Origin: a virus
Taxonomy: Duplodnaviria; Heunggongvirae; Uroviricota; Caudoviricetes
DNA length: 51,671 nucleotides
IMG/VR virus record: IMGVR_UViG_2718218104_000010
Reading direction: 5' to 3' (one strand)
This document shows, in pieces, positions 30,001-36,000 of this stretch. Every line of letters starts with the position of its first letter. The stretch's first letter is position 1. Made by a program: the position numbers.

Positions 30001-33000
30001 CGGGAGCATCCGTATACAGATAAATCCCCAGCCCGAACTGATTGTTGGTCAGTGCGCCTGACAGGCGGAACTTACAGTTCAGTCTGCCGCCCTGTGTCAG
30101 CAGGGTAATTGCGTCATCCACCGGATGCGTCAGGGACCAGGTTTTATTGCTCTGCCTGGTGATCTTAAATACACCATCTGACAACTGAATTCCGCCATCC
30201 TTAATGCTCCAGCCCTGCGCAGCAGCCTCTCCGGCTGCCGGCAGCAGGGAGATTGTGCGAACGGACGTATCTGCAGACGGACCCGATGGCGTGTTGCCGC
30301 CGGGCGAGGGTTTGATTTCCGGTGCCTTACCACTGATGAAGGCGGAGGTGCGCCCGGCTGCGTTCAGAATAGCGGTTGCCAGACGATCCGGAATAATGCT
30401 CCTGCGCGCCCATGAACTGAAATGTGTCGGGCGGTTTGATGATACCTGGTTTCCATTCGTTCTCGATGCCGCACCGTAATATCCTGATGCCGGAATATCC
30501 GGATCTTCTGCCGGCGCGTTAGTGGCGGTATTGACGCCGTTACCGTCTGTCATGAAGGGCACAAAATAAACGCCCTCACTCTCCCTGTTTTTATACCCGC
30601 CGTACACGGTGTCGTACTGGGTAGCGTATGTATTTTTCCAGTAATACGTCGTATCACCACAAATCCACGGCACATCTGCAGCACTGCCACCATGGCACTG
30701 CGCGTTAAACACGGAGAGGTCAGCACGAAACTGTGTCAGCATGGCTGTAAACAGCGCAGGTTGCTGTGCGTGGGTGGCGGCGCTCATGTCAAACTCTCCC
30801 TGCATCCAGCACACCGCCAGCAACACATTTTTCGGGTTCTTCTGTAATGCAGCTTTAGTGCGCGCAATCAGGTCCTGATATAACGGTTTACCCACACCCC
30901 AGCGTGCCGAATCCTGGCTGGCCCCCGTGTCCGCACTGAATGTCCCCTCAGCGCCCTGGGTGAATGCAGAACCACCACGACAGCATGGTACCAGCAGGAT
31001 CCCCGCGTTATTCGGGATATACGGAAGCAGTTTTTTGGCAATATGTAAGCCCTGGCCGACACAGCCGTACTGCCCTTTGCTCAGGTCTGCCTTCGGATGA
31101 TTCAGCGTACTCATATCCTGCACATCATGCAGGCAGTGGTCGGCCGGAATGATGTCGTTATACGTACAACTCTCTCCACCCGGAGTTACCGTGCTGCGGC
31201 GCGCCAGCTGTTTAATGCGCGGATCCGGAGCATCGTAAGAATCCGGTAACGGAAGCCCTTCACCGTAGGCCATGCCGTTGGACTGTCCGGCCAGTACGAT
31301 GACGTAGTACCAATCCGGCTCAGATGAAGGGCCGACCTGTGGCTCTCCTTCAATAGCCACCGCCTGCATCAGTGTGTACGGCGTAATGGCAACCGGTCCG
31401 CCGTATGGCTGCCAGCCCTCTTTCAGTTTGTGTGTCAGCTTTTCCGCAAGGTCTGACGGCGACGCCGCCCTGACAACATCATAGTGTTTAAATGCCATGA
31501 ATCCTCCCGGCCGGGATAATATTGTGAGTAAAATGAGGAGCGGGCTGAAGTCCGGAAGTTACAGGACAATGGCAGAAGAGAGACAACAGCCCGCAATACG
31601 AAAAAGGCCGCGCTATTGCGCAGAGTGATTACTGTCGGATATTATTCGCCAGCTGAAATATTACTTCACGTTTTGTTGTTTATTCCTTGCCGCCCGCGTC
31701 TCCCTGCGCGGGCTTTTTTTGTCCATAAGAAAGCCCCTCCGGAGAGGGGCTGGAGAGTGGCGCTATGTGCCATTGCATGGTGCCGGGTGCCTCCCGGTGA
31801 ATTCAGTACCAGCACCTGAATCCGCGATTATCCCATATACCTACTCGCTGATTGCCCCTCCGCACAGGGGGATTCACCATGCCAGTTTCTTTTAACAAAC
31901 TCCCCGCAAACCAGACAACAGTCAACCGCCTGAATTGTGAGACATTTAAAAAAAAGGCCCGCAAAAGCGAGCCAGGGAAAATAAGTGTGGCGCGTTGTAC
32001 TGGATTCGAACCAGTGACCGATTGCTTAGAAGGCAATTGCTCTGTCCGGCTGAGCTAACAACGCAGGATACAGATAATGGACCGCCTTCGGGGACCCGAA
32101 CTCCGCGCAACCAGCTTCGAAAGCTGGCGCTCTTTCCTGATGAGCTAATGGCGGTATGTGATGGTGGCCCTTGCTGGATTTGAACCAGCGACCTGGCGAT
32201 TATGAGTCGCTCGCTCTCACCACTGAGCTAAAGGGCTGGGTCAAAAAATAATAATCAGATGAAAATCAATAATCAAGCCCTTGCCTGGATACATATCTGT
32301 CTGGCGGGAAGCCATAATAGCGGTGAAATACAGAAATAAAGTAGGACCAGCTTGAATAACCGCATTTTTCTGCTACAGCCTGTCCATATCCATGCCGGGA
32401 ACATAACATATTGACAGCAACACGCATCCGCTCTTCCAGCAACAAGCGACTGAACATGTGCCCTTCATTTTTCAGTTTTATCTTTAACAAACTCTCACTC
32501 ATATGCAGGCGTAACGCAATCGCACCAAGCGTCCAGCTTGCTGATATATCTGTCTGAATTATCGCCCTGACTTTGGCACTTATACTGGATAAACATCCAC
32601 TTAAAAATAATAATATCCGTTCATCTGATTCAAACAGCGACAGGCATGCCATCATAAGAAACATATCCGTGGTATCTCCGGAAAATCTCTGGCTGGTAAT
32701 TAAAGCCTCAGCCAACGCAGGGTTGTTGGGTTCCAGTGACAGATAAAGCGGAACGTCAGTCAGATGAGTTCTTGTCAGCTTATGCTGAATTTCCAGATAT
32801 TGACTTACTATGGAATGGTTTATATCGAAAATTTTAACTTTGCCATAATGCATAAGGAAAAGCGCCCTGATGCATTTGGTGGCCAGAACGACTGAGCCGG
32901 GCTTAAGTGACAACGTATCCTTTTCAAGAAAAATATTAATTGGGGAGCAAACCATGATAACTGAACAGACAACAACCATTATAATTTTACTTTCATTAGC

Positions 33001-36000
33001 AATTGGTTAGTTCAATTATAGCCCCAAAAGGTAAATTATCATCAACACATAAGCAAAGGACTGACAGGTGCCGCTAACACCCACCAGCCGCCCATTTACC
33101 ACAAATAAAAAAGCCTTCAGGACTGAAGGCGTCTGTAACAACCGAACTGATAGTCTGCCAGACCCGCATAACCAGCTGGGTCAGTATTAACTGGCAGCGC
33201 TCGCGTGAAAGGTACGTATTCTGCGCAATCTCCCCGACCGTCGCCGGTTCGGTGACGCTTAATTCATCAAACACAACTCTGGCGGTTTCTGTCATATCCT
33301 GCTGTTTCAGCATGTCTTTTTACCCTTTCCGGTTAACGTGACACACCAATAACTCTTGTCGAAAAAGCCAGCAAGCTGAAAGACCTGTATTAATAACTAC
33401 CAGCACATTTAACGCACTGCGCTACTTTGCGGGCACAAAAAACCCGCTCAGAGGCGGGGTCAAGCTATGCGGCGAAATAACCACTCTTAACAGCATACCT
33501 GATTTTTTACGTACGTAAATGCTTTGCCGTGCATATTTTTCATGCAAATGTCACGTCCTGCTATTTTTCAGTCTTATAAATTTAAAACCATAGAAAAAAT
33601 CAATTATGTTTTAAAAATGGATAGGTAAAGAATAACAAGTGACACAGATTCAAACCAAAATGGAAAAGGGTGGCAACCCACAAACGCCCACTCCACATCC
33701 ATGACAATCCATACACAACACCAGATAACGTGGCAAATAATACAAGTAAAGCACCACCTGAATAGTGATAAAAACCAAACAACAAAGCCGCCACAATTAA
33801 TGCAACCAATGGAGACGTTACTTCTGATAGCCGTGATTGAATATACCCTCTAAATAATGATTCCTCTGCCAGAGACACAAAAAACAAATTAGCCAATATA
33901 AACTCTGGCAACCACTCAGGAAAATGAATCTCTGGCTTTAATCCACCAAAAAAAACAGCCAAAAACAGGATAAGAGGAACAGAGAGCGACAGAGCCCCCC
34001 ACTTCCACAAAGACACTTCTGATTTTACTTCTTTTTTAAACAAAGAAGATGTACACAGGACTAACAAAAATGGCACCAGCGCTTTATCAAAATTAAAATA
34101 CATTGTATAGGGAGTACTTTGAGGGCCAACAGTAACAGAATTTAGCACTACAGGATTGTGAAACCCTGGCCATAGATGGAAAAATAATGCTATGGCTGAT
34201 AAAACTATGCCAACTTCATATATAGATTTAGCCCAGGCGTTATATTTCCAGTTGAACTTCAAAATAATTAAAAAAACGATTGTAGCAACAAAAAATAACA
34301 CCGACCAATCAATAATATCATTAAGCACAGCCAGGACAACAGACACCGTCAACAATGAAAAAGCCACTACCTTATGCCAACTGAGAGTTGACAGTGACAG
34401 TACTAACACAATCCACATAAGCACTCCTTTTATTTAATGATGAAGATTGATTATCAATATTTTCAATTCACCAGGCAACATTTTATCTACCTTCCACAAT
34501 ACATGACCATCAAAAAATAAACATGTTAATTATAAACACAGAAAACATAACCCTCATCACTATATATCCCTACCGCATATCCATATCTAACCGGACATTC
34601 AGAGCCATAAGCATTCCTTCAATAATACCTTCCGCTTTATAAAGCCTTTTACCAATAAGCCCATCAGAACATCTATGCTTACGTGCAAGAGCCATAAATG
34701 TCATTCCACCTACGTAATAATCCACCAACAAATCGTGCAAATACTGATTATTCTTGTTTAATCGTGCCATACAACCACAAATTATCATGGCGTCATCATC
34801 AGAACACTTAGGACGTGATTTCACTTTAGTCGGGATTAATCCTTTAAAACCAGCAGCTATCGAGGGCCATGTTACATCTTCATGATTATTTGCTGCCCAT
34901 GCCCCCCATCGCTCAAGAACCATCTGGATATCACGCGCCATCGTTACCACCTCTGATTTCGTAAATCTTCACGCCCAGCCGTCCACCTGGCACAGGCTGA
35001 CCGCGCACAATATTGATTTCATCAAACTGCTCGTCATCAATGAGCACTTCCGCATGCGTCAGCGCATCCAGCGGTGCTTTCAGAATGTTGTCCAGGTCAC
35101 GGCGGCGCTTATCCGGTGGTTCTGCAATAATTTTTATTGCCAGCCGTCCGGACAGGCTTAATTTCAGCCGCTGCTGGCGAACAATAAGCGCCACAGCCCG
35201 GCGATAACGCTCACCGGCTTTTGATACAAAATATGTGCTGCCACGACGTCGCCAGTAGGTGTTCACCGTCGGCGGGTAAGGCAAAACAAACTCTATACGC
35301 ATCAGTAACCTCTTTTACCCGAGCACGCCGGTTGCAAAAGCGTGATCAAGAAAACGAAAAATTAAATCAACCTGGGAACCATGCTTTTCTTCGAACGCCA
35401 GCGGATCCGCATGAAGCTCGTTGTGATGCTCCCGACACAGCGGTAGCGTGAAAATATCGTGGGATTTTGTTCCCATTCCACCCTGACCATGACCAATCAG
35501 ATGATGAGGATCGTCCGCTGGCTTACCACAACACGCACACGGCTGTGTCTTTACCCAGCGTGTGTATTTCTCATTTACCCAGCGGCGACGTTTAGGTCGT
35601 TTCATGAAGGATTTCGGAGACTCCGGATCAACGGCAATGCTGACCACCGTCTTTTCCTGTGGTGGGTTCTGTTGCTGGTGGGTGTGAGGCGGTAGCGCAA
35701 TATTTTTTGTGCGCTGCTTCAGTATGCTGGTGGCGGTCTGTTCTCCCGGTATGATGTCGCTTTCACGGTATACGGAGCGGATTTTTTCCGCCGGTAATCC
35801 CAGAGAACGACGCGATACTGCCTCAGGTAATGCGTCCACCACCTGATTGCAGACTGCCCACCAGGATAATTCAGCCAGCGATAATTCCCGTTCCTGTATG
35901 CCATTCATTGCGTGGCGGATGACGTCAATCATCCAGGCGGCCAGATTCTGTTGAGCAAGTTGCTCAAGTGATTCGGATGTCTGGTCGCGCAGCTGGTTGT

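Follow-up and report, generated by a model that had tools for sequence, protein, structure and literature searches.

PsrA and PsrB of enterohaemorrhagic Escherichia coli (EHEC) O157:H7 are prophage-borne regulators of the AraC/XylS family, 90% identical to one another and located near pch genes, that repress type III secretion indirectly by way of raised GadE and YhiF, and deletion and complementation phenotypes have been published for PsrA (reviewed in PMC10877973 and PMC8565820). In 2026, the laboratory that discovered the Psr proteins named "psrA (ecs1087, Sp4)", tied it to the activation of gadE and the repression of the enterocyte effacement locus (LEE), and described its response to HnrS/Hha (PMC13502914). 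Here, we describe the corresponding region in IMG/VR virus record IMGVR_UViG_2718218104_000010 (Caudoviricetes), whose entire 51,671 nt form the window that was analysed. Between an antiterminator gene Q and a tRNA cluster, this window holds an AT-rich island (32266–34569) that encodes psrA itself, a small open reading frame (ORF) and a predicted intramembrane protease of the CPBP family. The main content of the island is mostly already known, in the form of PsrA; what remains is modest, namely the CPBP gene and its persistent linkage to Q.

Several other described systems resemble parts of this locus. The published output of the regulators YdeO, GadX/GadW, AppY and PatE, namely activation of gadE and hdeA, is the same as that of PsrA, and AppY and PatE are likewise prophage-borne. 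Published work defines the Q cassette as a stretch in front of the late genes in which Q is followed by the late promoter pR′, then by a pause element and then by a terminator (tR′). Stx-converting phages carry stx and other cargo downstream of pR′–tR′, and psrA likewise lies after the putative tR′, next to ileZ–argN–argO; psrA differs in having its own strong promoter-like site and a regulator as its product, and Sp4, the prophage to which the window belongs, carries no toxin gene. In DLP12-type prophages and in phage ev017, the slot occupied here by the CPBP gene, after a Q21-family Q and before pR′–tR′, is taken by a porin gene annotated as ompC, which we take to be lc of PA-2 and nmpC of DLP12. 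The product of this porin gene is an outer-membrane protein and its strand is the opposite one, whereas the CPBP gene is co-oriented with Q and encodes a predicted inner-membrane protease.

Layout of the Q–tRNA Interval

The window corresponds to Sp4, a lambdoid prophage of the CP-933M type from E. coli O157:H7, in an orientation that is the reverse complement of the Sakai annotation. Many E. coli O157:H7 chromosomes match the island with 100% identity, ECs1084–ECs1087 of Sakai Sp4 among them; there, Q is ECs1084, and after it come ECs1085, annotated as CAAX-protease family, the hypothetical ECs1086, the AraC-family ECs1087 and then the tRNA genes ileZ, argN and argO. Its GC content is 0.402 against a window mean of 0.517, and just 0.9% of all 2304-bp segments are equally low; by part, the values are 0.377 for the CPBP gene, 0.285 for the Q–CPBP spacer, 0.40 for the psr cassette and 0.53–0.55 for the flanks. 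An initial annotation of this DNA had placed a low-GC stretch with three minus-strand ORFs (CPBP, 79-aa and AraC-type) between Q and the tRNA cluster, and the GC scan together with ORF and Pfam calls bears this out. Coordinates refer throughout to the whole window, all features of the island lie on the minus strand, and loci used for comparison are cited by L numbers. The features on which the argument rests are as follows.

34570–34950, minus strand: antiterminator gene Q of the Q21/QuuD family (ECs1084; PF06530, 174.5 bits), the upstream anchor of the region
34450–34478, minus strand: candidate sigma-70-like promoter of the CPBP gene (TTGCCT-17-GATAAT, a consensus match only), 31 nt ahead of the ATG
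33600–34418, minus strand: gene for a predicted CPBP/Rce1-like glutamic-type intramembrane protease (ECs1085; PF02517), 272 aa
33492–33519, minus strand: putative pR′ from comparative analysis, TTTACG-16-TATGCT, followed by a conserved initial transcribed sequence, GTTAAGAGTGGTTA
33437–33458, minus strand: putative tR′ from the terminator scan, a hairpin of the intrinsic terminator type, CCCGCCTCTGAGCGGG, with T6 after it
33074–33313, minus strand: 79-aa ORF (ECs1086), a frameshifted copy of a conserved 65-aa ORF with weak winged-helix resemblance
33103–33130, minus strand: terminator-like hairpin from the terminator scan, GCCTTCAGTCCTGAAGGC, with a T-run, where the intact 65-aa frame ends
33015–33042, minus strand: sigma-70-like promoter candidate for psrA from the promoter scan, ATGATA-16-TATAAT (10/12), at the upstream edge of the psr cassette
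32266–32979, minus strand: psrA (ECs1087), encoding an AraC/XylS-family regulator of 237 aa with HTH_18 and HTH_AraC matches above cut-off

Identity of the AraC-Type Regulator

As judged from its sequence, the AraC-type gene is psrA, the already published regulator of LEE type III secretion and acid resistance. Specifically, its product is 100% identical to Sakai Sp4 ECs1087, and it lies, like the published psr genes, at a prophage site near pch, with a PerC-family gene a few kb off. A second O157:H7 copy, located in the OI-57 region of EDL933 (L014, 35275–35988), is PsrB; it agrees with the window protein at 215 of 237 residues (91%), which fits the published identity between PsrA and PsrB. 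The window protein has the C-terminal DNA-binding domain with two helix-turn-helix motifs that characterizes the AraC/XylS family, and it matches both PF12833 (HTH_18; 36.6 bits, cut-off 33.6, residues 155–230) and PF00165 (HTH_AraC; 35.3 bits, cut-off 26.6). The initial annotation had pointed to AraC-like regulators on EHEC prophages that modulate type III secretion; this is borne out, and the regulator is one of those already published. With respect to PsrA and PsrB of EHEC O157:H7, the protein is the same and only the map position disagrees, a point to which we return below. The identical protein is also found in O111:H8 and in an unrelated fish isolate. In the Sakai listing ECs1087 is given as 195 aa; RefSeq/PGAP and the full-length alignment with YdeO favour 237 aa.

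In terms of family relationships, model scores indicate that PsrA is a relative, not an orthologue, of YdeO and GadX. The NCBIfam models that match it best are those for YdeO (9e-30, full-length) and GadX (4e-25), with both scores far below the equivalog cut-offs: the YdeO model (NF007407) gives 104.1 bits over residues 1–229 against a cut-off of 348, and the GadX model 88 bits against a cut-off of 500. The C-terminal half also matches the solved DNA-binding domain of GadX (PDB 3mkl, 1.5e-18). Given the full-length alignment with YdeO and the match to the GadX domain, PsrA would be expected to work like the resident GAD regulators while being orthologous to none of them.

A Probable Mosaic of Three Units

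Comparison with other loci indicates that the region is probably a mosaic of three independently acquired units within the late-control region of Sp4. Homology breaks at 33043 and at 32240. Upstream of the first breakpoint lie two of the units: Q, the spacer and the CPBP gene (34950–33600), which recur together, and a segment (33599–33043) that comprises the putative pR′–tR′, the 65-aa ORF and, where that ORF ends, a second hairpin. The third unit, the psr cassette (33042–32241), starts at the promoter match and ends 3 bp before ileZ. The homology of phiP27 and of L012 ends at 33043, that of psr-less phages resumes at 32240, and the psr slot holds a DNA methyltransferase gene in phiP27, L012 and L031. 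The genes assort independently: psr occurs apart from CPBP in L005, L008–L012 and L014, in some cases with stxAB following, and CPBP occurs apart from psr in L023–L027, L031 and L034.

This independent assortment bears directly on the interpretation offered by the initial annotation, a regulator plus defence/immunity module. Under that interpretation, CPBP, the small ORF and the AraC-type gene would be co-transcribed as one module, with the regulator controlling a defence, abortive-infection or bacteriocin-immunity function of CPBP. The three genes do share a strand and a low GC content, the whole arrangement is found in 535 of the 574 CPBP-bearing E. coli genomes, and some Gram-positive CPBP/Abi proteins confer bacteriocin immunity. 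However, this linkage is largely clonal, coming mostly from O157:H7 and a few other EHEC lineages, and elsewhere the genes separate freely. Two terminator-like hairpins and a promoter unit whose conservation follows Q type also stand between the genes; with CPBP upstream of the putative late promoter and psrA past its terminator, the two would not form one operon under lysogenic conditions. With respect to defence, a search of the PADLOC-DB 2.0 defence models returned no match for CPBP or PsrA and one chance-level match for the small ORF (E=0.012), and no bacteriocin structural or export gene, nor an adjacent toxin gene, was found within 5 kb of CPBP in the prophage contexts and three chromosomal contexts examined. 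Moreover, the published targets of PsrA are gadE and yhiF, not a neighbouring gene (PMC10877973, PMC8565820, PMC13502914). A single module is thus highly unlikely, and what stands of the earlier interpretation as a whole is the known EHEC prophage regulator of secretion, not its pairing with a defence or immunity function.

The 79-aa ORF, which had been counted as part of this module, is indeed present at its place, and alignments indicate that it is a pseudogene in this lineage through a one-base deletion. RefSeq marks it as a frameshifted "TrmB family" pseudogene. Residues 1–49 are identical to intact copies and the sequence diverges afterwards; DNA alignment with the O111:H8 copy locates the loss of one G near 33167 (ATGGCG to ATGCG), and the intact frame would end at the stop at 33117–33119. 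Among carriers of the Q–CPBP locus, which include fish and baboon isolates, the 65-aa ORF is intact in O111:H8, strain E105 and PapM-36-2, and intact copies are also present in EDL933 OI-57, phiP27, phiSTEC1575-Stx2k and several Stx prophage contigs. The frameshift is present in the O157:H7 copies examined (the window, Sakai and 86-24). The intact 65-aa protein scores 18.3 bits against Pfam TrmB (PF01978), below the cut-off of 25.6, and the 79-aa ORF of the window has no Pfam match.

A frameshift of this kind, together with the IS629 and ISEc8 insertions and the inverted lysis region that Sp4 carries (Sakai annotation), could be taken as signs of decay, with the stretch reduced to junk inside a defective prophage and none of the three genes functional now. 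We regard this as extremely improbable. The CPBP gene has a dN/dS ratio of 0.16 and an intact active site, PsrA is identical in O157:H7, O111:H8 and the unrelated fish isolate, and the published deletion and complementation phenotypes of PsrA, as well as the response of psrA to HnrS/Hha, speak for a working regulator.

Putative Late Promoter and Terminator

A central feature of the mosaic is the element at 33519–33437, between CPBP and psrA, which we infer to be pR′–tR′ because of its Q-type-specific conservation, its agreement with the published cassette layout and the Q21 match of the adjacent Q gene. The latter matches the solved Q21 structure 6p18 (E=1e-7), and the Sakai Sp4 copy is 100% identical. 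The promoter half of the element is kept only with a Q21-family Q, in L023, L027, L028, CFT073 (L029), phage ev017 (L030) and phiP27; in phiP27, whose Q is 49% identical, the −35/spacer portion differs. Loci with other Q families share sequence from the terminator onward only. The tR′ hairpin itself is kept across nine loci, other Q types included, with changes in the loop and, in some, in the stem. In CFT073 (holin essD) and ev017, the element lies ~140 bp upstream of the holin gene and downstream of the reverse-oriented porin gene that follows Q. The locus thus has the composition of a Q21 cassette, namely a Q21-family Q with a promoter–terminator unit upstream of late genes that co-varies with Q type.

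Other assignments were considered for this region. A pR′ in the Q–CPBP spacer is less likely, since there is no terminator there and the Q-type-specific element sits after CPBP. The small RNAs HnrS and StxS were rejected as the conserved element after CPBP: HnrS lies on Sp9, Sp10 and Sp12, and no Rfam family falls inside the island. The folding z-score of the predicted short leader RNA, −1.4, is unremarkable.

The interval downstream of this element accommodates varied cargo. In a Q21-type prophage of E. coli N61 (L028, 4676–5625), the same pR′–tR′ element is followed directly, and ahead of the holins, by another AraC-family gene (35% identity to PsrA). AraC-type regulators seem to be recurrent cargo at this site. 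A psr homologue precedes stxAB within this interval in L005 and L008–L011, and in L005 tRNAs are annotated between the two. The premise of the initial annotation that the tRNAs closely follow Q in Stx-type phages applies to some of them; it fails for phiP27, phiSTEC1575-Stx2k and the Stx-encoding prophage contigs L008–L011, in all of which the Q–tRNA interval holds one to three cargo genes.

Under the mosaic reading, CPBP would be a solitary predicted glutamic-type intramembrane protease placed between Q and the late promoter, and it would be made together with Q on induction, possibly at a low level in the lysogen. Such co-expression is plausible because CPBP has its own promoter-like site and the terminator scan from Q to CPBP in Sp4 found no terminator. 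A Q21-type pR′ and tR′ would come next, followed by the 65-aa winged-helix ORF, apparently inactivated by its one-base deletion. The psrA cassette, with its own promoter-like site, would then lie between this ORF and the phage tRNAs, a position that would correspond to that of the stx genes (downstream of the tRNAs) or of the methyltransferase gene in related phages.

Several points weigh against this picture. First, pR′, tR′ and the promoters of the single genes are putative assignments made by consensus matching and comparison, and AT-rich DNA readily yields promoter-like matches, of which 14 were found against 7.5 expected. Second, Sp4 is a rearranged prophage, and late transcription may therefore not occur normally. 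Third, the position of CPBP relative to the late promoter is not fixed: in L036, which has a lambda-type Q, CPBP lies downstream of a pR′–tR′-like unit. Finally, reviews place psrA (z1789) on OI-50/CP-933N, not CP-933M (PMC10877973, PMC8565820). In terms of this last point, no psr copy was found in Sakai Sp6 (L003), Sakai Sp10 or EDL933 CP-933N (L004) in the finished genomes, and the Q–CPBP locus of EDL933 lies at 1.26 Mb of the finished genome; the difference between the OI-50 and Sp4 placements may go back to the earliest assembly of EDL933. The same lack of a psr copy in Sp6, Sp10 and CP-933N removed the alternative that the window gene is a third paralogue apart from PsrA.

The Predicted CPBP Intramembrane Protease

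The CPBP ORF opens at a GTG at 34424 (274 aa); translation more likely starts at the ATG at 34418, which has the proper Shine-Dalgarno spacing, 5 nt past an AAGGAG, and yields a protein of 272 aa. The protein scores 70.6 bits against the Rce1-like family PF02517 (cut-off 22.4). The motifs E185-E186-x3-R190, F214-x3-H218 and H253-x3-N257 (272-aa numbering) are invariant in 29 homologues, and this alignment and the PF02517 match confirm the CPBP assignment and the EExxxR, FxxxH and HxxxN motifs that the initial annotation had reported. In the AlphaFold model (pLDDT 94.7), the motifs lie on helices 170–200, 203–217 and 246–263. The top PDB folds for this model are the family members SpdC (6u0o; probability 0.99, TM 0.47–0.51) and Rce1 (4cad; E=0.04), which are weak matches, none of them at E≤0.001. 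A sequence search of solved structures with CPBP found no match, and against every NCBIfam subfamily the protein scores far short of the cut-off.

Relative to the PF02517 family, which includes Rce1, Staphylococcus aureus SpdC/LyrA, MroQ, the bacteriocin-immunity Abi proteins and the myxosortases, CPBP shares the catalytic motifs and, in the model, a multi-helix membrane fold. It differs by its linkage to phage Q genes and by a specific loop (H81...N109-x-D111-K112...P116-F117), and in the contexts examined it has no bacteriocin, sorting-signal protein or kinase partner gene. The loop, at residues 81–117, is conserved in a subfamily-specific manner (H81, G85, N88, S101, M106, Y107, N109, D111, K112, A113, P116 and F117); in the model it lies between transmembrane helices 4 and 5, folded as a beta-hairpin plus a short helix, and it could serve as a substrate-binding cap.

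The CPBP gene is under purifying selection with its active site intact, as seen in the dN/dS ratio given above, which was obtained against the 83%-identical copy, and in the invariant catalytic residues; on these grounds the protein is very likely functional. Full-length homologues ~50% identical occur across Enterobacterales chromosomes, where they are solitary and have unrelated neighbours. The phage protein therefore looks like a captured host-type membrane protease. Neither a conserved partner gene of CPBP nor a candidate for its substrate was found in the prophage and chromosomal contexts examined, and literature searches on ECs1085/ECs1086 and on a CPBP of E. coli prophages yielded nothing relevant. 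An expression record for Z1341 was set aside, as it could not be tied to the CPBP gene.

What distinguishes this CPBP gene is its association with Q. It is present in 574 of 5426 complete E. coli genomes (~10%), at 579 places and, with five exceptions, as a single copy, and 572 of the same 5426 genomes contain the stretch from the end of Q through the spacer into the start of CPBP at a coverage of at least 80%. The two genes diverge in parallel, with identities of 100, 92 and 82.5% for Q and 100, 83 and 59% for CPBP. In each of the five diverged prophage lineages (99, 83, 63, 59 and 55% identity), CPBP is found between Q and the lysis genes; the 63% and 55% lineages are also directly 3′ of a Q gene, which in the 55% lineage is a lambda-type Q of an unrelated family. 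Q21-linked lineages have a sigma-70-like site 31–51 nt upstream of the CPBP start codon: the site of the window reads TTGCCA-17-GATAAT in L031 and TTGTCA-17-GATAAT in L023, and diverged lineages have candidates of their own (ATGACA-17-TATTGT in L034, TTGACA-19-TATAAT in L027). The 55%-identical gene is found on a metagenome contig (L036, 3262–4364), after a lambda-type Q (PF03589) and a promoter–terminator unit (TTGATT-18-TATGCT, hairpin 3331–3356); a holin gene follows it, so that CPBP would be the first late gene there.

A position between Q and the lysis genes in every lineage raises the alternative that CPBP is an accessory protein of the lytic cycle instead of a product of lysogenic conversion, made along with Q or the late genes and acting on a membrane protein, for instance in lysis timing, in the processing of holin or endolysin, or in late superinfection exclusion. 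In the L023–L026 type, just tRNAs separate CPBP from the holin, in L036 it directly precedes the holin as described above, and the lack of a terminator between Q and CPBP in Sp4 would suit such a role as well. Against it, the Q–lysis interval is a general cargo hot spot (stx, porin, methyltransferase, GIY-YIG nuclease, AraC), and CPBP has been retained in Sp4 despite a displaced and inverted lysis cassette. The gene is also absent from all 50,697 deposited phage genomes, in which a tblastn search found just two chance-level Listeria fragments, so that it is dispensable for lytic growth, and chromosomal orthologues exist outside any phage context. On balance we consider a lytic function unlikely, and the mosaic reading, with CPBP as one independently acquired unit, is preferred.

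Neighbouring Features

The surroundings of the island contain further features, of which the following lie on its downstream side.

31988–32237, minus strand: tRNA cluster ileZ (CAU), argN (UCG) and argO (UCU), from ARAGORN, Rfam and the Sakai annotation, the downstream edge of the region
32248–32276: promoter-like site TTGATT-17-TATTAT beside the tRNA cluster, from the promoter scan
31498–29648, minus strand: sialate-O-acetylesterase-type gene

A strong Rfam match to the small RNA family STnc100 is found at 31721–31911 on the minus strand (138 bits, cut-off 47), just 3′ of argO and of a terminator-like hairpin (31973–31956), in the slot that the stx genes occupy in Stx phages. The esterase gene is followed by an IS629/IS1203 element (ALIL pseudoknot match, 29075–29191, minus strand), beyond which lie pchA and the lysis genes (Rz, endolysin and holin), inverted relative to Q (Sakai L002, 27131–31376). 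With the lysis genes of Sp4 inverted, a Q-dependent transcript would run through the small ORF and psrA, then the tRNAs and the esterase gene, and no further. On the other side of the island, a sok antitoxin RNA (36962–37136, minus strand, 105.6 bits) belongs to a hokD locus upstream of the DUF968–RusA–Q genes, and a weak, sub-threshold isrK-like match (27 bits) is found at 36722–36803 on the minus strand.

Implications

With respect to CPBP, no particular function is indicated here. A conjecture that we hold to be quite doubtful is that CPBP is a selected companion of lambdoid Q genes, given five lineages and two unrelated Q families, and that it cleaves or binds an envelope protein during induction or lysogeny. 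If this is true, CPBP would be a phage-encoded factor of a new kind, serving exclusion, immunity or lysis timing, and its function, if found, would add a new class of phage accessory protein.

PsrA, for its part, links the prophage to acid resistance and to the control of LEE secretion in EHEC. What is added here for psrA is its location on Sp4/CP-933M and its stx-like position behind a putative Q-dependent late promoter. This position, behind pR′–tR′ as for stx, suggests that prophage induction may boost PsrA. If this is true, a burst of PsrA would tie both acid resistance and the shut-off of type III secretion to the SOS response.

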